Below are positions 5,202 to 36,440 of a stretch of DNA of 64,000 nt, piece after piece. Each line of letters opens with the position of its first letter. Position 1 is the stretch's first letter. Made by a program: the position numbers and the translations under genes. The notes below the pieces were generated by a model. That model had not been told where the DNA came from. It searched no databases and saw only the letters and a program-made list of their open reading frames with translations. Origin of the DNA: Actinomycetota bacterium (GTDB lineage: Bacteria; Actinomycetota; Thermoleophilia; Gaiellales; F1-60-MAGs149). Location of the stretch: assembly GCA_026392355.1 (NCBI GenBank), contig JAPLCF010000036.1:129054-193053 (forward strand). The letters run 5' to 3'.

Positions 5202-5248
5202 GCAATCAACTTTGCTTTGGTGCCAGGCACCAAAGCAAAGTTGATTGC
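5202..5248. terminator. Perfect 23-bp-stem hairpin between convergent genes (bidirectional terminator-like)
   Basis: GCAATCAACTTTGCTTTGGTGCC-A-GGCACCAAAGCAAAGTTGATTGC. It is relatively AT-rich and sits between the stop at 5158 (+) and the stop at 5252 (-). Confidence 0.5.
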
Positions 5249-5251: not shown

Positions 5252-6055
5252 TCAGGACGTGCGGCCCGACCGCCAGTCGAGCAGCGCCTTGAGACCGTCG
5301 AGCGGCCACTCAGGGCCAGAGGTGCCGTAGATGAAGAACGTCGCGCCGGCATCGATGAACTGCTCGAGCTTCTCGTTCAGCTCGCCGGCGTCGGCCGGAA
5401 TCTCCTCGGCGTTGAGCATGATGCTGCGCTCGATCTCGTTGGGATCACGCCCGACGGTGGCGCAGTGCTTGTCGAGGACCTCACACTTGTGGCGGATCTC
5501 GTCGGGCGTACCGAAGCCGTGCCAGATGTCGGCGTGCTGCGCGACGAGCTTGAGCATGACCTTCTCGCCGCCTCCACCGATCAGGATCGGGATCTTGCCG
5601 CGCACCGGCGGCGGGTTGCCGATCGCCATGCGGTCCTTAATCACCGGGATGGCATCGCGGAAGGCGTGCAGGCGGGTGATCGCCGTGCCGAACTCATAGC
5701 CGAACTCGGTGTAGTCCTTCTCGAACCAGCCGGAGCCGATGCCGAGCGTCAGGCGCCCGTTCGAGATGTGGTCCACCGTGCGGGCCATATCGGCGAGCAG
5801 GTTCGGGTTGCGGTACGACATGCACGTCACGAGCGCACCAACCTCGACGCGGCTGGTGGCCTCGGCGAGCGCGGCGATCAGTGTCCAGCACTCGAAGTGC
5901 GGACCGTCCGGATCGTCGTACAGCGGATAGAAGTGGTCCCAGTTGTAGATCGCGTCGACGCCGAGCGTCTCGGCCTCGATCCACGACGCGCGCATGGCGT
6001 CATACGAGCCGTGCTGCGGTCGTGCCTGGTACCCAATGCGAATCGCTCGTGCCAT
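5252..6055 (-). CDS. LLM-class (luciferase-like) F420-dependent oxidoreductase
   Basis: 267-aa protein with the luciferase-like monooxygenase pattern (RIGYQARP..., SNGRLTLGIGSGW, IGGGGEKVMLKLVAQHADIWH). Close paralog of 6456..7259 and last gene of the cofCDE operon. Confidence 0.75.
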   Translation of the reverse strand: MARAIRIGYQARPQHGSYDAMRASWIEAETLGVDAIYNWDHFYPLYDDPDGPHFECWTLIAALAEATSRVEVGALVTCMSYRNPNLLADMARTVDHISNGRLTLGIGSGWFEKDYTEFGYEFGTAITRLHAFRDAIPVIKDRMAIGNPPPVRGKIPILIGGGGEKVMLKLVAQHADIWHGFGTPDEIRHKCEVLDKHCATVGRDPNEIERSIMLNAEEIPADAGELNEKLEQFIDAGATFFIYGTSGPEWPLDGLKALLDWRSGRTS

Positions 6056-6058: not shown

Positions 6059-6451
6059 TCAGCCCATCCAGTGTTCGGAATTGACGTCCATCTCGATCTG
6101 CACGCGCGTCTCGCCCTCGCGGCGGAACGGATATGGCTTGCCGAGGTACTTCATGGAGAGATCGTCGATGCCCTGATCGCCGCCCTCCTCCGTCATCGAG
6201 ACCGTGCCGCGCAACTCGACGTAGCGATACCCGTTCTCGGGGTCGAGTGCCATGATCGTCACCCGCGGGTCTGCCTCCATGTTGCGGAACTTCGCGCGAC
6301 CGGCTGCGGTGTTGAAGACGATCCTGTCGCCTTCGACGTGCAGCCACACGACCGTGACCTGCGGATGCCCGTCGGGCCCGATGGTGGCGAGGCTGGCGAA
6401 GATCGGCTGCTCGAGCAGCACGCGAGTGTTTTCGGAGATCGGCATGCGCAT
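6059..6451 (-). CDS. PPOX-class (pyridoxamine 5'-phosphate oxidase fold) F420/FMN-dependent protein
   Basis: 130-aa protein MRMPISENTRVLLEQPIFASLATIGPDGHPQVTVVWLHVEGDRIVFNT..., typical of the split-barrel FDOR/PPOX family. Only the 3' part of track ORF 6059..6748 is used. There is a 4-nt gap to the upstream gene. Confidence 0.7.
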   Translation of the reverse strand: MRMPISENTRVLLEQPIFASLATIGPDGHPQVTVVWLHVEGDRIVFNTAAGRAKFRNMEADPRVTIMALDPENGYRYVELRGTVSMTEEGGDQGIDDLSMKYLGKPYPFRREGETRVQIEMDVNSEHWMG

Positions 6452-6455: not shown

Positions 6456-7259
6456 CTAGCGGCTCGCCTCTGTGCGACGGGCGCGCCAGTCGAGCAGCTG
6501 CCGCAGGCCGGCGAGGTCGTAGTCGGGTCCGGCGCCCGAGTAGAAGAAATACGTGGCGCCGGCCCCGACGTAGGCATCGAAGAGCGCGTCGTCGGCATCG
6601 ACCAGCTCGTGCGCCTCGAACATGATGCTGCGCTCGATCTCGGCCGGATCGCGTCCCACCGTGGCGCAATGCCTGTCGAGGACCTCGCACTTGTGGCGAA
6701 TCTCGTCGGGCGTCCCGAAGCCGTGCCAGATGTCGGCGTGCTCGGCAACGAGGCGCAGCATCACCTTCTCGCCCCCACCGCCGATCATGATCGGGATCTT
6801 GCCGTGCACCGGCGGCGGATTGCCGATCGCCATACGCTCGCGAATCACCGGCAGCGCATCGCGGAAGGCGTGCAGACGAGTGATGGCGGTGCCGAACTCG
6901 TAGCCGAACGCGGTGTAGTCCGGCTCGAACCAGCCAGATCCCAGCCCAAGCACGAGGCGACCGCCGGAGATGTGATCGACGGTGCGCGCCATGTCGGCCA
7001 AGAGGTTTGGGTTGCGGTACGAGACGCAGGTGACCATCGCGCCGATCTCCACGCGGCTCGTGGCCTCGGCTAGCGCGGCGAGCGAGGTCCAGCACTCGAA
7101 GTGCAGGCCGTCAAGATCGCTCTCGACCGGCAAGAAGTGATCGTCGTTGTAGACCGCGTCGGCACCGAGCGCCTCGGCCTCGATCCACGACGCGCGCATG
7201 CGCTCGAACGTACCGTCCTGGGGGCTGGCCTCGTAGCCAATGCGGATGGGGCGGGTCAT
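6456..7259 (-). CDS. LLM-class F420-dependent oxidoreductase (paralog of 5252..6055)
   Basis: 267 aa, colinear and highly similar to the 5252..6055 product along its whole length. Its start overlaps the cofE stop (ATGA at 7256..7259). Confidence 0.75.
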   Translation of the reverse strand: MTRPIRIGYEASPQDGTFERMRASWIEAEALGADAVYNDDHFLPVESDLDGLHFECWTSLAALAEATSRVEIGAMVTCVSYRNPNLLADMARTVDHISGGRLVLGLGSGWFEPDYTAFGYEFGTAITRLHAFRDALPVIRERMAIGNPPPVHGKIPIMIGGGGEKVMLRLVAEHADIWHGFGTPDEIRHKCEVLDRHCATVGRDPAEIERSIMFEAHELVDADDALFDAYVGAGATYFFYSGAGPDYDLAGLRQLLDWRARRTEASR

Positions 7260-7999
7260 GCGAAGAGGTCCTTGTCGCGATCGATGATGCCGCCGGTTGC
7301 GCCCTCAGCACCGGCCTCGAGCACGACGCCACGAATCAGCACCGCGGGGACGCCGCCGCTCGGGCCGAGGGCGAGCTCGGCGGCACTCGCGAGCTGATCG
7401 CCCATGTGGACCTGCGTGGAGTGGAACTCGCGTCCCGTGTCGTCGACGCGGCCGGCGTGCTCGACGACCGTGGCGAAGCCCGCCGCGCCAAGCGCGACGC
7501 CGACGGTGCCGCGGCGGAACGGACGCCCGATCGAGTCGCTGATCACGATCGCCACGTCGGCGCCAGTCGCCGCACGCAGCGCGTCGCGAAGTCCACGCGC
7601 CGAGGCATCGGGGTCAACAGGCAGCAGCGTCACGTGGTCGGCCGCATCCTGGTTGGAGCGATCCACACCAGCCGAGCCAAGCACGTGGCCTTGGGCGGTG
7701 CGGCCGATGATGAACGCGCCGCGGCTGCGCACGACCTCGGCCGACTCGCGCAGGATCACCTCGACGACGCGCGGATCGCCGCCATCAGCGGCGCGCTCCA
7801 GCGCCTCGGGCGACGGCTCGACATCGGCGAGATCGACGATGCGCCCCTCGGCCTTCGAGACCGGCTTCTGCGCCACGACCAGCACGTCGCCGTCGGCCAA
7901 TGTCTCGCCCGCGTCGGCGATCGCGCCGAGCAGCAGCGCGGCAAGGTCGTCGCCCGGACGAATGCGCGCGGCCAGCGGAATCGGGATCACCTGGATCAT
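7256..7999 (-). CDS. cofE: Coenzyme F420-0:L-glutamate ligase, single-domain CofE type
   Basis: 247-aa protein MIQVIPIPLAARIRPGDDLAALL...DVLVVAQKPVSKAEGRIV...GVDRSN... Start is at Met168 of track ORF 7256..8500, overlapping the cofD stop (ATGA). No nitroreductase-like C-terminal domain is present. Confidence 0.8.
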   Translation of the reverse strand: MIQVIPIPLAARIRPGDDLAALLLGAIADAGETLADGDVLVVAQKPVSKAEGRIVDLADVEPSPEALERAADGGDPRVVEVILRESAEVVRSRGAFIIGRTAQGHVLGSAGVDRSNQDAADHVTLLPVDPDASARGLRDALRAATGADVAIVISDSIGRPFRRGTVGVALGAAGFATVVEHAGRVDDTGREFHSTQVHMGDQLASAAELALGPSGGVPAVLIRGVVLEAGAEGATGGIIDRDKDLFA

Positions 8000-8913
8000 G
8001 CGAGCACCGCGGCGGCGAGACCCGTGCGCACGGCCGGGTCCTTCATCAGCGTCGGTACGACGATGGCGCGCATGGCGAGCGCGTCGAGGTCTGCGGCGAG
8101 TGCTGCGTCCTCCTGATCGAGCACGTATGCCCCGGCCAGCGGCTGCAGGTAGCGCGCCACACCGATCGCATCCGGGCGGTGCCCCATCGACTGGAGCATC
8201 TCGACGAGCGGTCCCTTGACGGCTTTGCCACCGATCACCGGCGAGACGGCCACGGTGTCGTCGCGGCGCGCGATCACGGCATCGCGAACGCCGGCCACGC
8301 CGAGGATCGGGTCGAGCGAAACGAACGGATTGGACGGGGCCAGCACGATGCGGTCGGCTGCGGCAATCGTCTCGAGCACGCCGGGCCCGGGCGTTGCGGC
8401 CTCGATGCCCTCGAAGCGCACGCCCGCGACGGGGTCGGCGGCACGGCGTCGGACGAGCCACTCCTGGAAGGGCAGCTCGCCGTCGTCGGTGGCGATCCAC
8501 GTCCGCAGGCGATCGTCGGTGGCAGGTAGGAGGCGCGTGGCACAGCCCCAGCGGTTGGCGACGTCGGCGGTGATCGACGACAGCGCCTCACCTGCCCGCA
8601 ACCGCCGCGTGCGCGCGACGTGCAGCGCGACGTCCTTGTCGCCGAGGATGAACCAGTCGTCCTCGCCGAGCTCGATCGCGGTGTCCATCAGGTTGCGCGT
8701 GTCGCCCGCCACACCCCAGCCATTGACCGGGTCGATGCGTCCCGTCAGCGTGTACAGCACGGTGTCGAGATCGGGCGAGATCGACAGCCCCCAGTGCTCG
8801 CAGTCGTCGCCGACGTTGCCGATCACCGTCAGCTCACCCGGCGCCAGTGCCTCGTGGAGTGTGAGCGCCATGCGCGCACCGCCCACCCCCCCGGCAATCA
8901 GCGTTACTTGCAC
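7996..8913 (-). CDS. cofD: 2-phospho-L-lactate (or EPPG) transferase CofD/FbiA
   Basis: MQVTLIAGGVGGARM N-terminus and a full-length 305-aa CofD-like protein. Located in the cofC-cofD-cofE operon. Confidence 0.85.
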   Translation of the reverse strand: MQVTLIAGGVGGARMALTLHEALAPGELTVIGNVGDDCEHWGLSISPDLDTVLYTLTGRIDPVNGWGVAGDTRNLMDTAIELGEDDWFILGDKDVALHVARTRRLRAGEALSSITADVANRWGCATRLLPATDDRLRTWIATDDGELPFQEWLVRRRAADPVAGVRFEGIEAATPGPGVLETIAAADRIVLAPSNPFVSLDPILGVAGVRDAVIARRDDTVAVSPVIGGKAVKGPLVEMLQSMGHRPDAIGVARYLQPLAGAYVLDQEDAALAADLDALAMRAIVVPTLMKDPAVRTGLAAAVLA

Positions 8914-9443
8914 GCGGCCTCGAACTCCTGCAGGTCGGCGGGCGTATCGAGATCGCGGGCCAGGCCCGGGCGCACGACGGGCGTACCGCCATGACGAGCC
9001 GCAGACCCCTCGCCGTACGACGGCGTAAAGGCGCTCGGCGGAGAGGCAGCGATGGCGTTGGTTCGGCCATCAGGCGAGGGCGCGATTGCCAGCGGGGTAG
9101 CGGCGGCCAGCAGCGCCTCGATGTCGCTCGTCTCGACATACGGAAGATCGGCCGCGATCACCACGATCGTCGACGCATCGGGATAGGCCGCGAGCCCGCG
9201 CAGCACGCTCCCCGTCAGATCCTCACCGCCATCATCGACCACGACGGTGCCGAGCTCGCGGGCCGCGATATAGGCCATCGGGTCTGACGAGACGATGGCG
9301 ACCTCGAGCCCCGCGCCCTGGCACGCATCGATGACGCGCGTGAGCAACTGCAGCGCGAGGGCATGCCGCTGCTCGGCATCGAGTACCTCGCCAAGGCGCG
9401 ACTTGGCGTCGTCGAGTGACTTGAGCGGAACCAGGGCTATCAT
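8904..9443 (-). CDS. cofC: 2-phospho-L-lactate / phosphoenolpyruvate guanylyltransferase CofC/FbiD
   Basis: N-terminal ALVPLKSLDDAKSRL motif in a 179-aa protein. First gene of the F420 operon, with a 10-nt overlap onto cofD. Confidence 0.7.
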   Translation of the reverse strand: MIALVPLKSLDDAKSRLGEVLDAEQRHALALQLLTRVIDACQGAGLEVAIVSSDPMAYIAARELGTVVVDDGGEDLTGSVLRGLAAYPDASTIVVIAADLPYVETSDIEALLAAATPLAIAPSPDGRTNAIAASPPSAFTPSYGEGSAARHGGTPVVRPGLARDLDTPADLQEFEAACK

Positions 9444-9492
9444 CCAGCGGCAGTCTACGTCCGCCGCGCGCGGGGGACGCGAAGGGAGACCC

Positions 9493-10494
9493 GTGATCCG
9501 GATCGGCTACAAGGCATCGAGCGAGCAGTTCGCTCCGCGGGAACTCCTCGAGTTCGCGGTCCACGCCGACGCGAAGGGCTGGGACACGATCGCGATCTCG
9601 GACCACTTCCAGCCGTTTCGTCATACGGGCGGCCACTCGCCGTTCTCCTTCGCCTGGATGGGCGCGCTCATCGAGCGCACGTGCCACGCGTCGATCGGCA
9701 CCAGCGTCATCACCCCGACTTTCCGCCATCACCCGTCCACGATCGCCCAGGGCTTCGCCACGCTGGCCTGCCTGGCGCCGGGCCGCATCTTCCTCGGTGT
9801 CGGCTCGGGCGAGTCGCTCAACGAGGTGCCGCCGACCGGCATCGAGTGGCCCGAAGGTCCGGAGCGCCTGAAGCGCCTGAAGGAATCGCTCGCGCTGATC
9901 CGCCAGCTCTGGAGCGAGGAGCGCGTGACGTTCGAGGGCGACTACTACTCGACGCGCAGCGCGACGATCTACGACCTGCCCGACGCGCCGCCGCCGATCT
10001 ACGTCGCTGCGGCCGCACCGATGGCGTCGCGCTACGCCGGCGCCACTGCCGACGGCTTCATCACCACGTCCGGCAAGCCGAAGGAGCTCTACACCGAGAA
10101 GCTCCTGCCGGCACTCGCCGAGGGCGCCGAGAAGGCAGGCCGCTCGCTCACCGAGCTTGACCTGCTGATGGAGATCAAGCTCTCGTACCACCCCGACCTC
10201 GATCAGGCCAAGAGCGACTGCGACTTCTGGGCACCGCTCGCGCTGCCCGCCGAGATGAAGCACGGCGTCGAGGACCCGGTCGAGCTCGAGCGGCTGTCGA
10301 AGGACCCGTCCGTCGATCCGACGAGCCGCTTCATCTGCACGAACGACCCCGACGAGGCCGTCGAACGCATTGCCGCCTACGTGGAGATGGGGTTCACGAA
10401 CCTCGTCTTCCACTACCCGGGTGCGGATCAGATCGGGTTCATCGACCGCTTCGAGGCCGACCTCCGGCCGCGCATCGCAGCGCGCTGGGGTTAG
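9493..10494 (+). CDS. fgd: F420-dependent glucose-6-phosphate dehydrogenase
   Basis: GTG start at Val67 of the track ORF, preceded by GAAGGGAG. The protein IRIGYKASSEQFAPRELLEFAV...SDHFQPFRHTGGHSPFSFAWM...GVGSGESLNE is colinear with mycobacterial Fgd1 as I recall it. Confidence 0.85.
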   Translation: MIRIGYKASSEQFAPRELLEFAVHADAKGWDTIAISDHFQPFRHTGGHSPFSFAWMGALIERTCHASIGTSVITPTFRHHPSTIAQGFATLACLAPGRIFLGVGSGESLNEVPPTGIEWPEGPERLKRLKESLALIRQLWSEERVTFEGDYYSTRSATIYDLPDAPPPIYVAAAAPMASRYAGATADGFITTSGKPKELYTEKLLPALAEGAEKAGRSLTELDLLMEIKLSYHPDLDQAKSDCDFWAPLALPAEMKHGVEDPVELERLSKDPSVDPTSRFICTNDPDEAVERIAAYVEMGFTNLVFHYPGADQIGFIDRFEADLRPRIAARWG

Positions 10495-10503
10495 GCTGCC
10501 GGG

Positions 10504-12924
10504 GTGCTGACCGACGCCGAGGCTCTCGCGCTCGCCGAAGATCCCTCGCCGGATCTGGCGACACTCTGTGCTGACGCACGCGCGCGCCGCGACGCCGCCT
10601 ACGGCGTCGTGGTGACGTACTCGCCCAAGGTCTTCATCCCGCTAACGATGCTGTGCCGGGACGTCTGCCACTACTGCACCTTCACGAAGCCCCCCAAGAA
10701 GGGCGAGCGGTCGTACCTCACGCCTGACGAGGTTGTGGCGCTGGCCGAGCAGGGCAAGGCGGCCGGGTGCCGCGAGGCGCTCTTCACCCTCGGTGACAAG
10801 CCCGAGCTCCGCTACGAGGCAGCGCGGCTCGAGCTGGCGGAGCTCGGCTTCGAGACGACCGTCGCCTATCTCGTGCACTGCATGGAGCGGGTGCTCACCG
10901 AGACCGGCCTGCTGCCCCACGCCAACCCCGGCATCCTCAGCGACGCAGAACTGGCGGCCACGCGTGCGTGGTCGCCGAGCCAGGGGATCATGCTCGAGAC
11001 GGCGAGCGCTCGGCTGAGCGAGAAGGGCATGCCGCACTACGGCTCGCCCGATAAGGAGCCCTCGGTGCGCCTCGACGCGCTGCGCCGGATGGGCGCGCAC
11101 AAGATCCCGACTACGTCGGGCATCCTGATCGGCATCGGCGAGACACGCCGCGAGCAGGTCGAGGCGCTGCTGGCGCTGCGCGAGTTGCACGCCGAGCACG
11201 GGCATCTGCAGGAGGTAATCGTCCAGAACTTCCGTGCCAAGGCCGGCACAAAGATGGTCGATGCGCCTGAGCCGTCGCTCGACGAGCACCTGTGGACGCT
11301 CGCGATGGCGCGCCTGATCCTGCCCGACGAGGTGAGCCTGCAGGCGCCGCCGAACCTCGCGCACGCCGACTTCCCGCGTCTGCTCGAAGCGGGCATCAAC
11401 GACTGGGGCGGCGTCTCGCCCGTCACGCCCGATCACGTGAACCCCGAGGCACCGTGGCCCGAGCTTGAGGTGCTGGAGGCCCGTACCAGTGAGGCCAGCC
11501 ACACGCTGCTGCCGCGCCTCACCGTGTACCCGCGCTTCCTCAACACCGAGTGGACCGAGCCCGCGCCGCTCGCCGCCGCACTCAAGCTCGCCGATGGCCA
11601 GTTGCGATCGCGCCCGCACGACGACTGGGTCAACGGCATCTCACAGTCGCCACCCGCCGCCTGGAGCGATGGACCGCCCGCCCGCCTTGGTGCGATCTCC
11701 ACCGACTTCGCCCGCGCCATCAAGCGCGCCGAGGCCGAGGAGCTGCTCGAGCTCGAGGACACCGAGGCGCTCCTGACCGCTCGCGGTCCCGAGCTCGCGC
11801 GCCTCGTCGAGCTCGCCGACCAGCGCCGCTGGGAACGCGCCGGCGATGACGTGACGTACGTCGTCTGCCGGAACATCAACTACACCAACGTCTGCTACTT
11901 CAAGTGCGGCTTCTGCGCCTTCTCGAAGGGTCGCCTCGCGGAGAACCTGCGCGGTCCCGCCTACCTGCTCGACGTCGATGAGGTCGCTCGGCGCTCGGTC
12001 GAGGCGTGGCAGCGCGGCGGCACCGAGGTGTGTCTGCAGGGCGGCATCCACCCGGGCTTCACCGGCGAGTGGTACCTCGACGTACTGCGCGCCGTGAAGG
12101 CCGCGCAGCCTGAGATCCACGTGCACGCGTTTTCGCCGCTCGAGGTCTGGCAGGGCGCGGCCACCATGCAGTGGACGCTGGCCGATTACCTGCGCCAGCT
12201 GAAGGAGGCCGGGCTCGGCAGCATGCCCGGCACCGCCGCCGAGATCCTCGACGACGAGGTCCGCGCCGTCCTCTGCCCCGACAAGGTGAACACCGAGCAG
12301 TGGCTCGAGGTGATGCGCACTGCGCACTCCGTCGGCGTGCGCACGACGGCGACGATCATGTTCGGCCACGTCGAGCGTCCCGTCCACGTGGCGCGCCACC
12401 TGCATCGCATCCGCGACCTGCAGCGTGAGACGGGTGGCTTCACCGAGTTTGTGCCGCTGCCGTTCGTGCCCGAGGAGGCGCCGATCGCGCTGAAGGGCAA
12501 GGCGCGTTACGGCCCGACCTTCGACGAGACGATCGCCCTCCACGCCACCGCGCGGCTGGCCCTCGACCCGTGGATCCCGAGCATCCAGACCTCGTGGGTG
12601 AAGCTCGGTCCCGAAGGCGCGCGCCACATGCTCGGCGCGGGCGTGAACGATCTCGGTGGCACGCTGATGGACGAGTCGATCTCACGCGCGGCGGGTGCCG
12701 CCCACGGCCAGGAGTGCCCGCCCGAGCGGATGGATGAGATCATCGCCGCCGCCGGCCGCGACGCGTACCAGCGCACGACGCTCTACGGCCGCCCCGACGC
12801 GGCGCAGGTTGCGCGCTCCTACGGCGCGCCGCCGCTCGCCGACACGACACCGCCCGCGTACGACGATCTCGGTCTCAAGCGCCCCGCGACGCTGATTCGC
12901 CCGGGCCTCGCCGGCGTCAGCTGA
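10504..12924 (+). CDS. fbiC: FO synthase, fused CofG/CofH (7,8-didemethyl-8-hydroxy-5-deazariboflavin synthase)
   Basis: 806-aa protein with two radical-SAM CxxxCxxC motifs (CRDVCHYCTF and CYFKCGFCAF), characteristic of bifunctional FbiC. Confidence 0.95.
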   Translation: MLTDAEALALAEDPSPDLATLCADARARRDAAYGVVVTYSPKVFIPLTMLCRDVCHYCTFTKPPKKGERSYLTPDEVVALAEQGKAAGCREALFTLGDKPELRYEAARLELAELGFETTVAYLVHCMERVLTETGLLPHANPGILSDAELAATRAWSPSQGIMLETASARLSEKGMPHYGSPDKEPSVRLDALRRMGAHKIPTTSGILIGIGETRREQVEALLALRELHAEHGHLQEVIVQNFRAKAGTKMVDAPEPSLDEHLWTLAMARLILPDEVSLQAPPNLAHADFPRLLEAGINDWGGVSPVTPDHVNPEAPWPELEVLEARTSEASHTLLPRLTVYPRFLNTEWTEPAPLAAALKLADGQLRSRPHDDWVNGISQSPPAAWSDGPPARLGAISTDFARAIKRAEAEELLELEDTEALLTARGPELARLVELADQRRWERAGDDVTYVVCRNINYTNVCYFKCGFCAFSKGRLAENLRGPAYLLDVDEVARRSVEAWQRGGTEVCLQGGIHPGFTGEWYLDVLRAVKAAQPEIHVHAFSPLEVWQGAATMQWTLADYLRQLKEAGLGSMPGTAAEILDDEVRAVLCPDKVNTEQWLEVMRTAHSVGVRTTATIMFGHVERPVHVARHLHRIRDLQRETGGFTEFVPLPFVPEEAPIALKGKARYGPTFDETIALHATARLALDPWIPSIQTSWVKLGPEGARHMLGAGVNDLGGTLMDESISRAAGAAHGQECPPERMDEIIAAAGRDAYQRTTLYGRPDAAQVARSYGAPPLADTTPPAYDDLGLKRPATLIRPGLAGVS

Positions 12925-13547: not shown

Positions 13548-15845
<2,298 letters not shown>

Positions 15846-15849
<4 letters not shown>

Positions 15850-16856
15850 AGCTCGGCCACGAAGATCTCGGACGGCGACGCGTGCTTGAAGCGCTGGCGC
15901 TCCACCACCGCGACGCAGGCGATCGTGAGGGCGATGCCGAGCGCCTGCAGCGGTGAGAGGAGCTGACCGAGCACGAACCACGCAAGCAGCGGTGCCACGA
16001 TCGGCTCCGTCATGCCCGCCATGCTGCCTGCCCCAGCGCCAATCCGGGTGAAGCCGACGATGATCAGCGCATACGGGACGATGCTGCCGAAGACGATCGC
16101 GAAGAGCACAGCCACGCCGACCGGAATCGAGGCCTGCAGGCGACCGTCAAGCTGGGTCTGGACGGTCATCAGATCGAACGGCAGCTGCCAGAACGGCACC
16201 AGCGGCACCCAGATCAGTGCAGCCACCAGCATGCCCGCACCGGTGCGGGCCATCGGCGCCAGTGACTGCGGCTGGCGCGCACCGAGGATCGCCTGCCCCG
16301 CAAACGAGAACGCCGTCAGCAGTGCGAAGGCAATACCCACTATCGAAATGGCACCGATCCCTCCCGACCCGCCGACCACGGCCACGGCGACTCCAGCAAC
16401 GGCAAGCGCCATGGCGAGGTAGGCGAGCAACGGCAGCCGCTCGGCATGGAAGAGGCGCTGGTACGCGGCGACCAGGAGCGGGCCCGTGTAGACGATCACG
16501 AGCGCAACGGCGATGTCCATACGCGAGATCGCCTCGTAATAGAAGGCCTGGGCCAGCACGATCCCGACGAGCGCGAAGAGCGCAATCGGCACGAGATCGC
16601 GCCGCGTCAACCGCCGGGCAGCCAGCACCACGAACGGCAGCATCAGGAGCCCGGCACCGTACGAGCGGAACGCCGCCAGCTCCAGCGGCGCAACGCCACC
16701 GTCGAACGCGGCCTTGCTGATCACTCCGGTGCAGGCGAAAAGCACCGAGCCGCCGATCACCATCAGGTAGCCAGTTCGTCGGGAGATCACACCGAGCATC
16801 GTGCCTGAGCGCTGGACATACTGCGCTATGGGCCGGTCAAAGTTCGACGGGCGCAT
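15846..16856 (-). CDS. EamA/DMT-superfamily transporter (paralog 2 of 3)
   Basis: Same architecture as its neighbours. The alternative start at Met20 (16799) is equally plausible. Confidence 0.7.
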
Positions 16857-17832
16857 CCGGCGCGTCGATCCGGCGCGTCCGGATCCGCGCCGCCTCGACC
16901 ACCAGGATCGCCGTCACCGTCAACCCGATGCCAACCATCTGGAGCCCCGCGAGATACTGCCCCAGCAGCGCCCAGGCCACGGCAGCGGCGAGCACCGGTT
17001 CGGACATGCCGACCACGCTCGATGCGCCCGCCCCCACCAAGCTCGTACCGGCGACCCAGGCCACGAAGACACCAACCGACCCGATCAGGATCGCAAAGGC
17101 GATGGCGACCCAGAGCGGCATCGAGAAGCCGAGCCCCCCGGTGAAGCTCGCCGTCGCGCCGAGCAGATCGAAGGGCAGCGTCCACGGCGGCACGATCACG
17201 CAGAACGCCACGGCGGCGGCCACCATGCTGGCTGCCGTTCGCGCGAGCGGCGGTAGCTCCGTCGGCAGACGTGCCGCGAGAATCACCGAAACGCCGTAGG
17301 CGATCATCGAGATGGTCGCGAAGATCAGCCCACGCATGGTGATGCCACCGATGCCACCCCCGGCAACTGCGAGCGCGACACCACCGATGGCGACGACGAT
17401 CGCGGCGTACGCGTATACCGGGAGCGTCGCGCCCAGATACACCCGCTCGTACAGCGTCACGAAGATGGGCGCCGTGAAGATGATCACCAGCACGATGGCC
17501 ACGTCGGAATCCTGAAACGCGATGAAGGCAGTGCCCTGCCCGAGCACCAGCCCAATCACGGCGAAGGCGGCGATCGGCAACAGATGCGAGCGGCGAATCC
17601 GCCGAAGCACCGGGATCAGGAAGACCAGAAGGATGAGCCCGCCGCCGTAGATGCGTGTAGCCGAGAGTTGCAGTGGCTCGACCCCCGTATCGATGATCAG
17701 ACGAGCGAAGACCACGTTGAATGCGGCTAGCGCCGCCGAGGTGAAGACGAGGATGTAGCCAAGCACCACGAGGTTCGAACGCGAGGAGGTGGTGCGTGCC
17801 GACGCCACGTCAGCACCGTACCGCGCACGCAC
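16837..17832 (-). CDS. EamA/DMT-superfamily transporter (paralog 3 of 3)
   Basis: 331-aa multi-TM protein and first gene of the co-directional eamA x3 - argG remnant - PAP2 string. Confidence 0.7.
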   Translation of the reverse strand: MRARYGADVASARTTSSRSNLVVLGYILVFTSAALAAFNVVFARLIIDTGVEPLQLSATRIYGGGLILLVFLIPVLRRIRRSHLLPIAAFAVIGLVLGQGTAFIAFQDSDVAIVLVIIFTAPIFVTLYERVYLGATLPVYAYAAIVVAIGGVALAVAGGGIGGITMRGLIFATISMIAYGVSVILAARLPTELPPLARTAASMVAAAVAFCVIVPPWTLPFDLLGATASFTGGLGFSMPLWVAIAFAILIGSVGVFVAWVAGTSLVGAGASSVVGMSEPVLAAAVAWALLGQYLAGLQMVGIGLTVTAILVVEAARIRTRRIDAPDAPVEL

Positions 17833-17881
17833 CCATCTCCGCCTACGTATCAGTCGCAGGCGCGCCGGTTACGCTCCCGAC

Positions 17882-28014: not shown

Positions 28015-28644
28015 GTGGCCAAAGACCTGCCGATCGGGAAGCTCCTCCGCGAGTGCGGTTTCGCATCCGACACCGCGCAGGCCGCAGGACGTGAGGCCCT
28101 CGACGCGGCTGGTGTGACACGTCCGGGCAAGGACCGCATCGTCGAGTGGAAGCGACCCGACGTCGTCGCGGTCCTCAAGGCACGCGTCACGCTGCTCTGC
28201 GCACCATGCCGCGAGGCCGGGCTCGGTAACGACTACCCGGAGGCGATCACGGCCGGAGCCGGCGACCGCTGCGTCGTCTGCGAGGGCAGCGCCACCCGAC
28301 GTGGTGCGCTGATTCTGACCCGCGCCTGCCAGCGTGCGCGCTTCCATCGGGTGATCTTCGTCGGCGGTAACCCCGACGTCCATCGTGAGCTGCCGCTGCT
28401 CCTGGGTAACGACCTCGACGTCCGCGTCGTCGATGGCATGACATCGCGGCCGGGGCGTGACGTCCAGCGCGAGATCGACGGCTGCGACGTTGTCGTACTG
28501 CTTGGCTCGACCGAGATCAGCCACACGGTCAGCGCCACCTGGGCGGGGCCAAAGACGGTCGCGACTCAGTCTCGCGGTATCAGTGCGTTCCTGCTCGAAG
28601 CGGCCGAGAAGATCGACGCCCGCGCCGGCCGCGCTGGACTCTGA
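28015..28644 (+). CDS. Hypothetical protein with two CxxC pairs and a DUF2325-like C-terminal domain
   Basis: CAPC and CVVC motifs followed by RVIFVGGNPD...CDVVVLLGSTEISH. I judged the antisense ORF 27997..28818 a shadow. Confidence 0.4.
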   Translation: MAKDLPIGKLLRECGFASDTAQAAGREALDAAGVTRPGKDRIVEWKRPDVVAVLKARVTLLCAPCREAGLGNDYPEAITAGAGDRCVVCEGSATRRGALILTRACQRARFHRVIFVGGNPDVHRELPLLLGNDLDVRVVDGMTSRPGRDVQREIDGCDVVVLLGSTEISHTVSATWAGPKTVATQSRGISAFLLEAAEKIDARAGRAGL

Positions 28645-28699
28645 GCCCACAGGCAGGTACCTTGACCGCGCAGTCAGGATTATCGAGGAGAGGTTCCCC

Positions 28700-30022
28700 A
28701 TGCATGACGTCATCGTGATCGGCGCCGGCTTTGCCGGTTGCTCCGCGGCCCGCGAGGTACGTCGAGCCGGCAAGACGCCACTGCTCCTCGAGGCGCGCGA
28801 CCGCATTGGCGGCCGCACGTGGACCTCGGACTGGGATGGCCAGCGGTTCGAGCGCGGCGGTAACTACTTTCACTGGTTCCAGCCCCACCTCTGGACCGAG
28901 GTCATGGCCGCCGGCGTCACGCCGCTCGCGCCGCCCACCGGCGACCCCGTGCACTGGACCGTCAATGAGCAACTCCGTAGCGGCACCCGCGCCGAGCGCG
29001 AGGCCATCAACGAGTCTGCCTGGAACAAGTACAACGCGGGCTCGTGGGAGATCCTCCCCGAGCCGCACGCACCCCTGCGCCACCCCGACCGCATCGCCCG
29101 GCTCGACGCCATGACGATCCAGGAACGGATCGACGAGCTCGACCTGACCGACGATGAGCGCGCGCTCCTGATGGTGGAGTGCGAGGGCGTGGCGAGCGGA
29201 CACCTCAACGATGCCGGCGCCCTCTCGGTGATGCGCTGGCATGCGCTGTCTGGACACACGCTGGCTGGCACGCAAGAGGCTGCAGGCGGCTACACGATCG
29301 CCGAGGGCACGCTCGCCTTCCTGCAGCCGATCCTCGACGCCGCCGCCTGCGAGTTGCGACTCGAGGCGCCGATCGAGGCCATCGAGCAGGAGGACGACCG
29401 CGTCGTCGTCACGCTGCGGTCCGGCGAGGCGCTGGCAGCCCGCGCGTGCGTCGTGACTGTGCCGCTCAACGCGCTCGGGGCGATCCGCTTCGAGCCAGGC
29501 CTGTCAGAGGTGAAGCGGTCGGGCATTGCTCTCGGACAGGCGGGCATTGGCAGCAAGGTGATGCTCAAGGTGCGCACGTCCGGCGGCCCGGTCTCGGGCA
29601 TGCACCCGAATCACCCCTTCGGCTTCCTCGGCACGATCTTCGATCTGCCCGGCGACGAGCAGATCCTTGTGTGCTTCGGCCACGACGGTGACGAGATCGT
29701 CGATGGCGACCTCGCCTGGGCGCAGCGCGAGCTCGACCGGGCGATCCCCGGCTGCGAGGTGATCGGCATGAATTACCACGACTGGAAGTCCGATGAGTTC
29801 TCGCAGGGCACCTGGGGCGTGCACCGCCCAGGCTGGTACACGACCCACCACGCCGAGATGCAGCGCCCAGAGGGTCGCGTGATCCTCTCCAACTCCGACG
29901 CTGGGCAGGCTTCGTCGATGGGGCGATCGAGTCGGGCACGCACGGTGGCCGCTGGGCGGCCGCGCAGATGTAGTCCGAACCTTTTCCAGACCATAACCAG
30001 ACCAATTTGCAATTTGGTCTGA
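28700..30022 (+). CDS. Flavin-containing amine oxidase (MAO/putrescine oxidase-like) with an apparent C-terminal frameshift
   Basis: MHDVIVIGAGFAGCSAAREV...LEARDRIGGR N-terminus. After ...ILSNSD (about 29899) the conserved C-terminus WAGFVDGAIESGTHGGRWAAAQM* is encoded in another frame, ending at 29973. Confidence 0.7.
   Translation: MHDVIVIGAGFAGCSAAREVRRAGKTPLLLEARDRIGGRTWTSDWDGQRFERGGNYFHWFQPHLWTEVMAAGVTPLAPPTGDPVHWTVNEQLRSGTRAEREAINESAWNKYNAGSWEILPEPHAPLRHPDRIARLDAMTIQERIDELDLTDDERALLMVECEGVASGHLNDAGALSVMRWHALSGHTLAGTQEAAGGYTIAEGTLAFLQPILDAAACELRLEAPIEAIEQEDDRVVVTLRSGEALAARACVVTVPLNALGAIRFEPGLSEVKRSGIALGQAGIGSKVMLKVRTSGGPVSGMHPNHPFGFLGTIFDLPGDEQILVCFGHDGDEIVDGDLAWAQRELDRAIPGCEVIGMNYHDWKSDEFSQGTWGVHRPGWYTTHHAEMQRPEGRVILSNSDAGQASSMGRSSRARTVAAGRPRRCSPNLFQTITRPICNLV
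29986..30021. promoter_or_regulatory. Candidate HutC/GntR operator array: CCAGACCA-taa-CCAGACCA plus a 24-bp near-palindrome CAGACCAAtTTGCAAtTTGGTCTG
   Basis: AT-rich patch 40-75 nt upstream of the first BMC-operon gene. The palindrome pairs at 11 of 12 positions. The half-site resembles DasR/HutC-type TGGTCT/AGACCA boxes. Confidence 0.5.
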
Positions 30023-30061
30023 TATTCGGTACCTTCCGGTCCGTACCCTCGGAAGGCATCG

Positions 30062-31354
30062 ATGTACGACTACGGATTCTTCTCGTACGACTCGAAGGCG
30101 GACATGCTGGAGCGCTCCCGCGCGTTCTGGAATCCCGACAAGACCGACTTCTGGCAGGACGCCGGCATCGACCTCGTGATCGATCGCCGCGAGGGCTACT
30201 ACCTCTGGGACATGGCTGGCCGCCGCCTGATCGACGTGCACCTCAACGGCGGCACGTACAACCTCGGCCACCGCAACCCCGAGCTAATCGCCACGCTCGA
30301 GCAGGCCATGCAGCACTTCGACATGGGCAACCATCACTTCCCGTCGCTCGCGCGCACCGCACTGGCCGAGGCGCTCGTCAAGACGTGCGCCCCGAACATG
30401 CGCCGCGTGATCTACGGCGCCGCGGGCGGCGAGGCGATCGACATCGCGATCAAGACGGCGCGTCACACCAAGCAGCGTCGCAAGATCGTCTCGCTGATCA
30501 AGGCGTACCACGGCCACACCGGCCTCGCCGTCGGCACGGGTGACGACCGCTTCTCGAAGCTCTTCCTCGCAGACCACCCCGAGGAGTTCATCAACGTCCC
30601 GTTCAACGATCTCAACGCGATGGAAGACGCGCTCAAGGGCCGCGACGTCGCCGGCGTGTTGATCGAGTCGATTCCCGCGACGTACGGCTTCCCACTCCCC
30701 GAGCCCGGCTACCTCCAGGGCGTCAAGCGCCTCTGCGAGCAGTACGACACGCTCTACATCGCCGACGAAGTGCAGACCGGCCTGATGCGCACGGGCGAGA
30801 TGTGGTGCATCTCGAAGTCGGGCGTCGAGCCGGACATCATGGTCATCGGCAAGGGCATCTCCGGCGGCATGTACCCGCTCTCGTGCGTCGTCGTCTCCGA
30901 GGAGTGCTCGGCCTGGCTCAAGGAGGACGGCTTCGGCCACATCACCACGGTCGGCGGTTCGGAACTCGGCTGCATCGTCGGGATGAAGGTCCTCGAGATC
31001 TGCGGCCGGCCCGAGGTGCGCTCGATGGTGCACTACATGGCCGAGCGCTTCCAGCAGGGCCTGCGCCAGATCCAGGAGATCTACCCCGACTGGTTCGTCG
31101 GCATCCGCCAGGACGGCGTCGTGATTGGCCTCGAGTTCAACCATCCCACCGGCGCGAAGATCGTGATGAAGCATCTTTACGCGCACGGCATCTGGGCGAT
31201 CTTCTCCACGCTCGATCCGCGCGTCCTGCAGTACAAGCCCGGCATCCTGCTGAGCCCCGAGCTGGTCGACGAGATCCTCGACCGCACGGAGATCGCCATT
31301 GGCAAGGCCTACGCCGAGTGGAAGTCCATGTCGCGCCAGGCGGTGACGGCATGA
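30062..31354 (+). CDS. Class-III aminotransferase-fold PLP enzyme (candidate amino-alcohol O-phosphate phospho-lyase of the BMC pathway)
   Basis: 430 aa with DEVQTGLMRTG and the VIGKGISGG PLP-lysine region. First gene of the BMC operon, ATGA-coupled to the aldehyde dehydrogenase. Confidence 0.8.
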   Translation: MYDYGFFSYDSKADMLERSRAFWNPDKTDFWQDAGIDLVIDRREGYYLWDMAGRRLIDVHLNGGTYNLGHRNPELIATLEQAMQHFDMGNHHFPSLARTALAEALVKTCAPNMRRVIYGAAGGEAIDIAIKTARHTKQRRKIVSLIKAYHGHTGLAVGTGDDRFSKLFLADHPEEFINVPFNDLNAMEDALKGRDVAGVLIESIPATYGFPLPEPGYLQGVKRLCEQYDTLYIADEVQTGLMRTGEMWCISKSGVEPDIMVIGKGISGGMYPLSCVVVSEECSAWLKEDGFGHITTVGGSELGCIVGMKVLEICGRPEVRSMVHYMAERFQQGLRQIQEIYPDWFVGIRQDGVVIGLEFNHPTGAKIVMKHLYAHGIWAIFSTLDPRVLQYKPGILLSPELVDEILDRTEIAIGKAYAEWKSMSRQAVTA

Positions 31355-32877
31355 GCATGATCGAGCTGGAGCGCCGCGATCCTCCCGGGGCCGCCCGCGC
31401 CGCGATGATGCTGCAGCGCGCCCACTGGGCCGCCGAGACCTTCGCGCGCTATGACCGCACCCGCGTCGTGCGCATCCTTGACGCCGTCGCCGAGGCCGCC
31501 GAGGCCCACGCCGAGCGCTATGCCGAGGAGGCCGTTGCCGAGACCGGCATGGGCGTCGTCGAGCACAAGGTCCTTAAGAACCGCATGCTCTCACGCGGCC
31601 TCTGGGACCACTATCGCGATCACGATTTCGTGAGCCCGCGCATCGACCACGACGCCAAGATCCTCGAGCTGCCCCGCCCCGCCGGCGTGATCTTCGCGCT
31701 CACGCCCGTCACGAACCCCGTCGCCACCGTGTACTTCAAGGTGATGCTCGCCCTGATGACGCGCAACGCGATCGTCGTGAGCCCGCATCCCGGTGCCAAG
31801 CACGTCTGCGCCGACGCCGTCCGCATGCTGTCCGACGCCGCCGTCCGCGCCGGCGCCCCTGACGGCTGCATCCAGATTGTCGAAGAGCCCTCGATCCCGC
31901 TGATCGAGGCGCTGATGACCGACCCGACGACCGACGTCGTCGTGGCGACCGGCGGTGGCGCCGTCGTGCGCGCCGCGTATCGCTCGGGCAATCCCGCCCT
32001 CGGCGTGGGTCCTGGCAACGTGCCCTCGTTCGTCGACGCCACGGCCGACATCGCTGCGGCCGCGCGGCACATCATCGACTCCAAGTCGTTCGACCACTCC
32101 ATCCTCTGCACCAACGAGTCGGTCGTGATCGTCGAAGAGGAGGTCGCCGACCAGCTCGAGCGCGAGCTGCGCAAGCACGGCGGCCACATCGTCGACGCCA
32201 GCGAGGTTGAGCAGGTGCGCGAGCACCTCTTCCCCAACGGCCACATGCGCCTCGACCTGATCGGCAAGAGCGCACTCGAGCTGGCCGAGGCCGCGCAGCT
32301 GAAGGTGCCCGCGAACACGCGCGTGCTGATCGCACCGTTCTCGCTCGTCGTCCCCGAGGAGCCGCTGGCGCACGAGAAGCTGTTCCCGCTGCTGGGCCTC
32401 GTCCGCGTGCCCAATACGCGCGCCGGCATCTCGGCCGCCCAGGCGATGCTGCGCATCACCGGCGCCGGCCACTCGGCCTCGATCCACTCGCGCAGCGCAC
32501 GGACGATCATGGCCTACGGCGCCGCGGTCAAGGTCCTGCGCGTGTCGGTCAACGTCGGCAACAGCCTCGGCTCGGCCGGCGCACTGACGAACCTCTCGCC
32601 CACGATGACGATCGGCACCGGCTTCTACGGCCGCTCGTCGGTTGGCGAGAACCTCGAGCCGCGCCACCTGATCAACCTGATGCGCGTCGCGTACAACGCC
32701 GACGCCTCCGTGCCCTTCGACGACTTCACCGGCCTTGAGCCGTGGGTCCTCGAGGCGGCCGCCACACCCATCGCCGCGCCCGTCGAGCACGCGCCGGCCG
32801 CACCCGAAACCGACCTGCTGCGCGAGGAGATCCGCAAGGTGATCCTCGAGGAGCTCAAGGAGCTGACCCGTCAGTGA
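31351..32877 (+). CDS. CoA-acylating aldehyde dehydrogenase (PduP/EutE-like) with C-terminal encapsulation-peptide-like helix
   Basis: Start is at Met184 of track ORF 30802..32877. The catalytic region has FDHSILCTNE. The tail is an Ala/Pro linker plus the amphipathic DLLREEIRKVILEELKELTRQ. Confidence 0.85.
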   Translation: MSMIELERRDPPGAARAAMMLQRAHWAAETFARYDRTRVVRILDAVAEAAEAHAERYAEEAVAETGMGVVEHKVLKNRMLSRGLWDHYRDHDFVSPRIDHDAKILELPRPAGVIFALTPVTNPVATVYFKVMLALMTRNAIVVSPHPGAKHVCADAVRMLSDAAVRAGAPDGCIQIVEEPSIPLIEALMTDPTTDVVVATGGGAVVRAAYRSGNPALGVGPGNVPSFVDATADIAAAARHIIDSKSFDHSILCTNESVVIVEEEVADQLERELRKHGGHIVDASEVEQVREHLFPNGHMRLDLIGKSALELAEAAQLKVPANTRVLIAPFSLVVPEEPLAHEKLFPLLGLVRVPNTRAGISAAQAMLRITGAGHSASIHSRSARTIMAYGAAVKVLRVSVNVGNSLGSAGALTNLSPTMTIGTGFYGRSSVGENLEPRHLINLMRVAYNADASVPFDDFTGLEPWVLEAAATPIAAPVEHAPAAPETDLLREEIRKVILEELKELTRQ

Positions 32878-33494
32878 GTAACGCAACCGCCGTCGAGCTC
32901 CGCTCCTGCATCTACCTCGATCAGCTGCAGCCGCAGACCATGTGTTACCTCGGCTCCTGGATCAAGGGCCGCCTGCCGCGCGCCGGCATGGCCGCCCAGA
33001 TCATCGAGGTCGCACCGGGTCTCGACATCGAGGCACTCACCGACGTCGCGCTCAAGCACGACCGCGTCGAGGCCGGCATCCTGTTCGTCGAGCGCACCTT
33101 CGGCTACCTCGAGATGCACTCGCTCTCGCCCGCCGCCGTCAAGTCGGCCACCAGCGCCGTGCTCGACGCGCTCGACCTGTCGGGTCGCGACTCGATCAAG
33201 CCGAAGATCCTGGCCAAGAAGGTCATCTCGCGCGTCGACGGCCAGCACGCCTTCCTGATCAACCGCAACAAGATCGGCTCGATGCTCCTGCCGGGTGAGT
33301 CGCTGTTCGTACTCGAATGCCAGCCCGCCTCGTACGCGATCCTCGCGACGAACGAGGCCGAGAAGGCCGCCGACATCAAGGTGATCGACTACCGCATGAT
33401 CGGCGCCACCGGCCGCGTCTACCTGTCCGGCGAGGAGGCCAACGTCCGCGCTGCGGGCGAGGCCGCCGTCGCAGCGCTGGAGGCAATCGCGTGA
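32874..33494 (+). CDS. BMC shell protein, tandem BMC-domain (BMC-T-like), paralog 1
   Basis: 206 aa with a GTGA-coupled start. Two BMC-like halves are visible (AAQIIEVAPGLDIEALTDVALK... and SLFVLECQPASYAILATNEAEKAADIKVI...GRVYLSGEEANVRAAGEAA). Confidence 0.7.
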   Translation: MSNATAVELRSCIYLDQLQPQTMCYLGSWIKGRLPRAGMAAQIIEVAPGLDIEALTDVALKHDRVEAGILFVERTFGYLEMHSLSPAAVKSATSAVLDALDLSGRDSIKPKILAKKVISRVDGQHAFLINRNKIGSMLLPGESLFVLECQPASYAILATNEAEKAADIKVIDYRMIGATGRVYLSGEEANVRAAGEAAVAALEAIA

Positions 33495-34060
33495 GCGAAG
33501 CCCCCGTCAACGAGAGCACCGAGATGCACGCGGCGCTGAAGACTGCGCTTGCCGAGCTCCTGCCCGACATGCTGCGCGAGCATCAGGCGGCTCCGGTCGC
33601 CCAGGTGCCTGCACCGCCCGTCGCGCAGACGCTGCGCCCGAGCACCTGGCACCCGTCGCAGCAGGCGCCCGATCCGGCGGGCAACGCCGCTCCCGCCCCC
33701 GCTGCCGCACCGGCCGCCGGGGGCGCCGTCGAGCAGGTGCGTCTCAAGGACGACCGCGACCTCGACACGTTCGTGCGCTCGCTGGCACGCCGCCTCGAGC
33801 ACCCGGCCGAGCGCGCCGCGATTGCCGCGGGCCACATCCGCTTCACCATGACGGGCCACGGCACACCTGCCGCCGCGCCTGCACCCGCCACGAGCGGTAC
33901 CGAGCGCATCGAGCGCGGTGCCGTCACCGAGCGCATCATCGAGCGCGCCGCCGAAAACGGTGGCGTCCTCGTGCTCGGCCCCAAGGCCGTGCTCACGCCG
34001 ATGGGCAAAGATCGCGCCCGCGCACTCGGCGTCCAGATCCAGAGGGAGGCAGCATGCTGA
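33491..34060 (+). CDS. BMC-associated hypothetical protein (N-terminal amphipathic helix, Pro/Ala linker, small C-terminal domain)
   Basis: 189 aa. GTGA-coupled upstream, and its end overlaps the BMC-P start by 7 nt. Contains MHAALKTALAELLPDMLRE, then a P/A-rich stretch, then ...GAVTERIIERAAENGGVLVLGPKAVLTPMGKDRARALGVQI. Confidence 0.6.
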   Translation: MSEAPVNESTEMHAALKTALAELLPDMLREHQAAPVAQVPAPPVAQTLRPSTWHPSQQAPDPAGNAAPAPAAAPAAGGAVEQVRLKDDRDLDTFVRSLARRLEHPAERAAIAAGHIRFTMTGHGTPAAAPAPATSGTERIERGAVTERIIERAAENGGVLVLGPKAVLTPMGKDRARALGVQIQREAAC

Positions 34061-34293
34061 AAGGCACCGTGACCGGATCCGTGTGGTCGACCAAGCGCGT
34101 CGACGATATGCCACACGGAGCGTTTCTTGAGGTAGAGCTCGAAGGCGGCGCCTCGATCGTCGCGTTCGACATTCTCGGCTCGGGGGTCGGCGAGCGGGTC
34201 CTCGTCGCCACCGGCTCTGTCGCCGCCGCGCGGTTTGCGCCGGCCCACCCGCCGATCGATGCACTGATCGTCGGCCTGATCGACCAGTCCTAG
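34054..34293 (+). CDS. BMC vertex pentamer protein (BMC-P; EutN/CcmL/PduN family)
   Basis: 79 aa: MLKGTVTGSVWSTKRV...VAFDILGSGVGERVLVATGSVAA...IDALIVGLID matches the EutN/CcmL pattern. Confidence 0.85.
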   Translation: MLKGTVTGSVWSTKRVDDMPHGAFLEVELEGGASIVAFDILGSGVGERVLVATGSVAAARFAPAHPPIDALIVGLIDQS

Positions 34294-34341
34294 ACCCACA
34301 TTCATCACGCACGTCCAGTTCGAGATCCAAGGAGGGATCAC

Positions 34342-34617: not shown

Positions 34618-34627
34618 GGAGCACCCG

Positions 34628-35272: not shown

Positions 35273-35273
35273 G

Positions 35274-35370: not shown

Positions 35371-35371
35371 T

Positions 35372-35391
35372 CGGTCTGGTCGAACAGACCG
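35372..35391. promoter_or_regulatory. Second GGTCTG/CAGACC palindrome: CGGTCTG-gtcgaa-CAGACCG
   Basis: 7-bp perfect inverted arms 40 nt upstream of the kinase gene. It shares the half-site with the 29986..30021 array. Confidence 0.4.
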
Positions 35392-36424: not shown

Positions 36425-36440
36425 CCAGGAGGTCACCACC

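Follow-up and report, generated by a model that had tools for sequence, protein, structure and literature searches.

The 64-kb stretch of DNA analyzed here (hereinafter, the window; all positions are those of the whole stretch), from contig JAPLCF010000036.1 of an actinobacterium of the order Gaiellales, has a G+C content of 67-72% and encompasses a complete gene cluster for the biosynthesis of cofactor F420. The cluster is of the unfused (Cof-type) kind, and the subject of this analysis is its F420-0:gamma-glutamyl ligase, CofE, together with the three oxidoreductase genes that follow cofE. Six tightly packed genes occupy positions 9443-5252 of the minus strand in the order cofC-cofD-cofE-LLM1-PPOX-LLM2, and the fgd-fbiC pair diverges from them across a 49-bp spacer; cofC, cofD and cofE are in one operon, and fbiC is located 2.5 kb away. 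The genes, with their predicted functions, and the associated features are as follows.

5202-5248, no strand: perfect 22-bp hairpin directly past the LLM2 stop codon, where the LLM2 and DAO genes converge
5252-6055, minus strand: LLM2, short luciferase-like F420-dependent oxidoreductase, 267 aa (TIGR03856, 359.7 bits, cut-off 243.7; PF00296), the last gene of the operon
6059-6451, minus strand: PPOX, PPOX-class (FDOR-B, split beta-barrel) F420-dependent oxidoreductase, 130 aa (TIGR03618, 106.5 bits, cut-off 79.05; PF01243, 66 bits)
6456-7259, minus strand: LLM1, short luciferase-like F420-dependent oxidoreductase, 267 aa (TIGR03856, 330.8 bits, cut-off 243.7; PF00296)
7256-7999, minus strand: cofE, single-domain F420-0:gamma-glutamyl ligase, 247 aa (TIGR01916, 220.5 bits; PF01996 only)
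7996-8913, minus strand: cofD/fbiA, 2-phospho-L-lactate (or enolpyruvyl) transferase, 305 aa (TIGR01819, 269 bits, cut-off 257; PF01933)
8904-9443, minus strand: cofC/fbiD, guanylyltransferase, 179 aa (TIGR03552, 129.6 bits, cut-off 105; PF01983), the first gene of the operon
9444-9492, no strand: divergent intergenic region, 49 bp, between cofC (ATG 9443) and fgd (GTG 9493, preceded by GGGAGA)
9493-10494, plus strand: fgd, F420-dependent glucose-6-phosphate dehydrogenase (TIGR03554, 424.3 bits, cut-off 420)
10504-12924, plus strand: fbiC, FO synthase (CofG/CofH fusion; two radical-SAM stretches and PF19288, CofH_C)

The cofD gene overlaps cofC by 10 nt, and its stop codon overlaps the start codon of cofE in the ATGA at 7999-7996; the LLM1/PPOX and PPOX/LLM2 junctions leave 3-4 nt between the genes. 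The six genes are probably co-transcribed, and the hairpin past LLM2, for which folding yields a dG of -40.5 kcal/mol (z -7.5, with 0 of 200 shuffled sequences equally stable), is the likely end of the transcript. The inverted repeat that forms this hairpin is relatively AT-rich and present in a single copy in the window; one of its arms is found at the equivalent site in a related locus (L008; here and below, L numbers denote retrieved loci). The search for sigma-70-like promoters yields one match, with a weak consensus only, at 9416-9443 on the plus strand. The TIGR03554 match in fgd begins at residue 68 of a long open reading frame (ORF), so that GTG 9493 is the true start. The best PDB matches of the cofC product are 7P97, 6BWG and 2I5E, and fbiC shows 69-97% identity to the gene in the same position in related loci.

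The single-domain ligase and its distribution

An initial annotation of this DNA described the cofE product as a 247-aa ligase without an extra domain and noted that its stop codon overlaps the start of an LLM gene, which is followed by a PPOX gene and a second LLM gene. Both observations are confirmed: the overlap, as read from the sequence, is the ATGA at 7259-7256, and the three downstream genes belong to TIGR03856, TIGR03618 and TIGR03856, respectively. The TIGR01916 score of CofE exceeds the cut-off of 180.65, and PF01996, the only domain matched, spans residues 12-224 (profile positions 6-218 of 218). The two-domain FbiB model NF009810 covers CofE at positions 13-242 of 449 only, that is, with its ligase half, at 180.6 bits, below the cut-off of 304. 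A Pfam search detects no match to PF00881 and no C-terminal nitroreductase domain in CofE, which ends at residue 247. Given that the C-terminal domain that defines FbiB was tested for and is absent, the ligase is a bona fide CofE rather than an FbiB; GTP-dependent glutamylation of F420-0 is the activity predicted from the family. The best solved relative is CofE from Archaeoglobus fulgidus (2G9I, E-value 7e-38, residues 2-234). The start codon at ATG 7999 is supported by homologs of 247-248 aa and by the family models, which align from residue 2-3. The possibility that a 414-aa ORF beginning at GTG 8500 represents a longer CofE was rejected because this ORF overlaps cofD out of frame.

The initial annotation took a fused FbiB to be the actinobacterial rule, which is not borne out by the loci of this class, where CofE is a single-domain protein. 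All of the 120 best CofE homologs in a collection of 5.8 billion proteins contain PF01996 alone; nearly all are 234-261 aa long, and the only named organisms among these best 120 are Gaiellales. A genome scan identifies single-domain CofE also in metagenome-assembled genomes (MAGs) of Acidimicrobiia, Solirubrobacterales and Gaiellales and in loci from Chloroflexi and Proteobacteria. The premise of a fused FbiB holds for mycobacteria and not for this class, and the assumption of a universally fused actinobacterial FbiB is to be corrected. In Actinoplanes, the fbiA-linked "FbiB" (L035, positions 9986-11251, and L027) consists of the ligase domain and an additional 80-200 aa at the C-terminus that show no similarity to PF00881 or TIGR03553, and therefore some Actinomycetes, too, are without a fused reductase domain. 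The sections of the literature that deal with the ligase describe three arrangements, namely archaeal CofE, the fused mycobacterial FbiB, and CofE accompanied by FbiE, a stand-alone homolog of FbiB's C-terminal domain, in Thermomicrobium (PMC8498797, PMC8764529); independent FbiE homologs are reported in several predicted producers (PMC8498797). This third arrangement was absent from the explanations offered in the initial annotation but was named there among the checks.

The exact CofE sequence of the window is on record only in a 3.4-kb Logan contig with an identical gene order. In a collection of species-representative genomes, the closest cofE genes, with 77-96% identity, all come from MAGs labeled Gaiellales, Thermoleophilia, Actinomycetota or "uncultured actinobacterium", with single records labeled "uncultured bacterium" and "uncultured Bifidobacterium"; several isolate names among these MAGs point to lake samples, and the close relatives are freshwater MAGs. 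In a neighbor-joining tree of CofE, the clade is monophyletic, but its sister group is not resolved, and the ancestral state with respect to FbiE cannot be deduced from this tree. A literature search revealed no link between Gaiella and F420 biosynthesis. The locus is a new member of the Cof-type bacterial clusters, in a lineage for which no F420 literature was found.

FbiE and the side-chain precursor

Four Chloroflexi loci (L021, L029, L033 and L037), in which an FbiE gene of about 200 codons is located between cofE and cofD, served as positive controls in the search for a separate reductase. For example, FbiE of L037 matches 4XOM, the C-terminal domain of Mycobacterium tuberculosis FbiB, with an E-value of 1e-33, far ahead of generic nitroreductases, and its best NCBIfam match is TIGR03553 (153 bits). 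FbiE is encoded directly 3' of cofE also in two MAGs, L026 from Actinomycetes and L036 from Acidimicrobiia, and the FbiE genes of all these loci were recovered by the searches applied to the window. In the 64-kb window, no FbiE or PF00881 gene was identified by Pfam analysis of the called genes, by tblastn started with four FbiE proteins, or by an FbiE profile run against all six-frame ORFs of at least 70 aa; the best tblastn match (E-value 0.013) lies inside an isochorismatase gene and is considered spurious. Likewise, no FbiE was detected in approximately 22 loci of the clade (L001-L015 and L038-L044), each of 20 kb or less. Stand-alone FbiE proteins of about 200 aa are abundant in public data, and the named organisms among the matches listed are few, all from Acidimicrobiia. 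A search of the protein database with an actinobacterial FbiE profile yielded, among the best 120 matches, only close relatives of the query and is uninformative on Gaiellales.

The absence of FbiE applies to the window and the loci searched, and genome-wide absence is not implied. CofE proteins of Acidimicrobiaceae (L019, L020 and L022) group with the FbiE-linked CofE proteins of L026 and L036, yet no FbiE is present within 10 kb of cofE in these three loci, so that FbiE need not adjoin cofE. Moreover, Cof-type clusters without an adjacent nitroreductase gene are common among the retrieved loci, including the proteobacterial cofE-cofD-cofC-fbiC clusters, Dehalococcoidia and Acidimicrobiaceae.

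The demand for a reductase depends on the C3 acid that is activated by CofC. One of the explanations proposed in the initial annotation was a route that needs no reductase, from either 2-phospholactate (2-PL) or 3-phosphoglycerate (3-PG). In the 3-PG enzyme of the Mycetohabitans type, Ser162 is critical for 3-PG activation and is aided by Met91 and His145 (Hasan et al. 2022, PMC8764529). An alignment of the CofC from the window with M. tuberculosis FbiD shows that K17, L92, D116, G163, S166, D188 and D190 are kept, with Asn at the position of T148. In a multiple alignment, CofC of the window has Leu at the position of L92, where the 3-PG enzymes carry Met, and, like M. tuberculosis FbiD and Methanosarcina mazei CofC, Tyr-Gly where the 3-PG enzyme has Ser-Gly; the column of Ser162 is uncertain by one position, and neither of the two candidate columns holds Ser or Thr. 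There is no His at the position of H145. The same pocket residues (Leu, Tyr-Gly and no His) are found in four distant members of the clade. Because the equivalents of Ser162, Met91 and His145 are absent, the 3-PG version of the proposed route is disfavored. A CofC that activates 3-PG, with no subsequent reduction, would account for the lack of a reductase, and an environmental sample is reported to contain 3-PG-F420, the producers of which are not known (PMC8764529), but with such a pocket in the window and in the four distant clade members we consider this route highly improbable.

The pocket is of the type that accommodates 2-PL or phosphoenolpyruvate (PEP), between which the sequence cannot discriminate. 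It is possible, although we hold this only tentatively, that CofC uses 2-PL in vivo, as has been proposed for archaea, in which case the single-domain CofE would suffice and the genome would encode no reductase at all. All tested CofC enzymes other than the 3-PG type prefer 2-PL in vitro, and CofC assays do not reveal whether 2-PL or PEP is the substrate in vivo (PMC8764529). The pocket of the window CofC is of this non-3-PG type, and the lack of a nitroreductase in the cluster is compatible with such a route.

Oxidoreductases linked to cofE

The order cofC-cofD-cofE-LLM1-PPOX-LLM2 is kept in the close relatives wherever the contig is long enough; in one lineage with 77% CofE identity (L014), the order is cofE-PPOX-LLM2, without LLM1. 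Among seven CofE homologs sampled at 53-59% identity, six (L038, L040, L041, L042, L043 and L044) are encoded in the arrangement cofC-cofD-cofE-PPOX-LLM with a divergent fgd-fbiC pair, and in the seventh, the PPOX gene is divergent from cofD. Where tested (L040 and L043), the PPOX and LLM proteins of the distant operons belong, by NCBIfam, to TIGR03618 and TIGR03856. Judging by family assignment, the conserved core across the clade is cofE-PPOX-LLM (TIGR03618 and TIGR03856). LLM1 is missing from the distant Gaiellales-type operons. LLM1 and LLM2 of the window share 74% identity, and LLM2 is 54-62% identical to the LLM 3' of PPOX in the distant relatives. Taken together, the two proteins show 54-63% identity to the downstream LLM of the distant operons versus 45-52% to the paralog on the fgd side, and therefore the clade of the window duplicated the downstream LLM gene. 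The fgd-side gene is a further TIGR03856 paralog located between fgd and fbiC in L038, L040, L041 and L044; it is missing in the clade of the window, where the tandem duplicate flanks PPOX instead. In the FbiE-less lineages outside the clade, relaxed tblastn, profile searches and Pfam analysis of the downstream ORFs detect no PPOX or LLM gene beside cofE.

The PPOX protein is assigned to TIGR03618/FDOR-B by its hidden Markov model match and split-barrel domain, and binding of F420 is predicted. Its nearest structure is 3F7E (E-value 1.3e-18), followed by Rv1155. An exhaustive protein search identifies 4259 representatives with E-values of 1e-3 or lower, only 4 of which reach 1e-30 or lower. 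Of the operon genes, PPOX shows the least conservation, with 41-46% identity, in contrast to 51-69% for CofC, CofD, CofE and FbiC. No CofE-PPOX fusion is present among the best 120 CofE matches or the best 150 PPOX representatives; the long proteins among the latter are tandem PPOX repeats. In L044, a 311-aa "CofE" runs into PPOX; this is taken as an indel error rather than a true fusion, given that cofC and cofD are fused on this contig too and that the PPOX match is distributed over two frames. According to the legend to Fig. 10 of PMC8498797, the accessory genes shown in F420 gene clusters include those for Fgd, FDOR and LLHT. In the F420 literature consulted, there is no description of cofE-PPOX-LLM placement in an F420 biosynthesis operon, and no member of the PPOX/FDOR-B and TIGR03856 subfamilies appears there with an assigned physiological substrate.

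The explanation that we consider likely is that this locus is a Cof-type cluster with co-expressed users of the cofactor, and that either FbiE lies elsewhere in the genome or 2-PL is used. From established family functions, FbiC would make FO, CofC would activate a C3 acid, 2-PL or PEP but not 3-PG, with GTP, CofD would move the activated acid onto FO, and the single-domain CofE would attach the gamma-glutamyl tail, with Fgd holding the cofactor reduced at the expense of glucose-6-phosphate. The two TIGR03856 LLMs and the TIGR03618 PPOX are most likely F420H2-dependent users of the cofactor, and their genes may be retained in the operon so that the cofactor and its users are produced together. 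In agreement with this explanation, the family scores are all above the curated cut-offs, the genes lie close together or overlap, and there is a strong hairpin past the final gene. The large families TIGR03618 and TIGR03856 take their names from proteins of mycobacteria, in which FbiB is fused. The presence of both families in organisms with their own reductase domain, together with the lack of CofE-PPOX fusions in the sets of best matches described above, also favors the user role.

Several observations weigh against this explanation. Apart from the lack of FbiE and PF00881 genes in the window and of FbiE in the loci of the clade, the PPOX-LLM pair is still found next to cofE when CofE identity has dropped to 53%, and the stop codon of one gene often overlaps the start codon of the next; this linkage is tighter than an arbitrary user enzyme would give. 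Furthermore, PPOX occupies the slot that belongs to FbiE in the Chloroflexi and Acidimicrobiia loci. As for the precursor, PMC6450877 states that no lactate kinase supplying 2-PL is known in any organism.

These same observations bring up the other explanation contained in the initial annotation, that a reductase is supplied in trans. The clade would then use PEP, and either the PPOX (FDOR-B) or the TIGR03856 LLM of the operon would reduce the enolpyruvyl double bond of dehydro-F420-0, with F420H2 or dehydro-F420H2 provided by Fgd as the reductant, replacing the FbiB C-terminal domain and FbiE. A separate reductase in organisms with CofE only, denoted "CofX" and yet to be identified, has indeed been expected (Bashiri et al. 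2019, PMC6450877), and FDORs and LLHTs perform F420H2-dependent ene-reductions, e.g., the LLHT LxmJ on dehydroalanine (PMC8498797). The conserved and translationally coupled linkage of PPOX to cofE, its location exactly where FbiE stands elsewhere, directly after cofE, the recurrence of the gene order in six of the seven distant relatives (with an extra LLM in the close ones, and PPOX beside cofD in the seventh), and the absence of FbiE from all clade loci searched would all fit. However, the window covers only 64 kb of the genome, and the FbiE gene may be located at a distance from cofE; both oxidoreductase families have very many members, also in organisms with fused FbiB, so that adjacency may reflect only shared regulation. 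PPOX also has the lowest identity among the operon genes compared, is not fused to CofE in any of the matches listed, and has as its nearest structures 3F7E and Rv1155, enzymes without an assigned biosynthetic role; the other FbiE-less clusters do without PPOX or LLM beside cofE, and FDOR and LLHT genes are known as accessory genes of such clusters (PMC8498797). On balance, reduction in trans by one of these proteins appears unlikely, and the conservation of cofE-PPOX-LLM is circumstantial support for it rather than evidence. By the same token, it is doubtful that PPOX/FDOR-B or the short TIGR03856 LLM is the first identified CofX for CofE-only organisms, which would be non-homologous to the nitroreductase-fold FbiB C-terminal domain and FbiE.

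The source of the saturated lactyl linker of F420 in organisms with single-domain CofE is disputed, with 2-PL made by an unknown kinase on one side and PEP combined with the reductase CofX on the other (PMC6450877), and this cluster leaves the dispute unsettled. What it adds is a whole actinobacterial clade in which two small F420-type oxidoreductases are linked translationally to cofE, at the site of the known reductase in other lineages. PPOX and LLM are, accordingly, two small and easily expressed candidates for the missing dehydro-F420-0 reductase; should neither of them be that enzyme, the locus would be one more Cof-type F420 cluster.

Other loci in the window and comparison with known systems

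Several additional loci are present in the window. The argininosuccinate synthase gene (13548-14987, minus strand) contains an in-frame TAG at 14463-14465 and is missing 29 codons compared with the orthologs in L005 and L009; it is either a pseudogene or the product of an assembly artefact. The minus strand at 14869-17868 encodes three EamA-family (drug/metabolite transporter) paralogs in a row. The region 28442-38020 resembles a bacterial microcompartment locus of the RMM (aminoalcohol) type, with genes for an amine oxidase, a class-III aminotransferase, an aldehyde dehydrogenase, an APH-family kinase, an SDR protein and a GntR/UTRA regulator; BMC-domain shell proteins are encoded at 32742-33494 and 34342-34617, and the ORFs at 33317-34060 and 34454-35272 have no Pfam match. 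At 40645-44293, a homocysteine S-methyltransferase-like gene lies between two flavin amine-oxidase genes that are paralogs of each other (40645-41988 and 42926-44293, minus strand), with an amino-acid permease gene upstream. The 44-49 kb region contains a leucine/isovalerate-type catabolic set consisting of carboxyltransferase, enoyl-CoA hydratase, biotin carboxylase and acyl-CoA dehydrogenase genes.

Among the known systems, archaeal-type CofE (A. fulgidus, PDB 2G9I, 2PHN and 7ULD) resembles the ligase of the window in that it is a single PF01996 domain of about 250 aa encoded in an operon with cofC and cofD; unlike the archaeal case, the host here is an actinobacterium, and the ligase is paired with a fused FbiC and Fgd rather than with CofG and CofH. 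Mycobacterial FbiB (C-terminal domain, PDB 4XOM, 4XOO and 4XOQ) has a homologous N-terminal ligase domain but carries a fused nitroreductase-fold dehydro-F420-0 reductase, whereas the ligase of the window is without TIGR03553 or PF00881, and the next gene encodes an LLM. The CofE and FbiE of Thermomicrobium roseum and other Chloroflexi (Braga et al. 2020, cited in PMC8498797 and PMC8764529) share with the window the single-domain CofE and a small redox gene directly downstream; in Chloroflexi, this gene encodes the nitroreductase-fold FbiE, in contrast to the PNPOx-fold FDOR-B and TIM-barrel LLMs of the window, which have unrelated folds. The proteobacterial cofE-cofD-cofC-fbiC clusters (e.g., Oligotropha and Paracoccus; Ney 2017, cited in PMC8498797; L016, L017 and L032) also combine a single-domain CofE with the lack of a clustered nitroreductase gene but differ in gene order and have no PPOX or LLM attached to cofE. 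Finally, with respect to the FDOR-B/PPOX proteins (PDB 3F7E; Rv1155, PDB 1W9A and 4QVB) and the TIGR03856 LLMs (MSMEG_2906), the proteins of the window score above the curated cut-offs of the respective family models.

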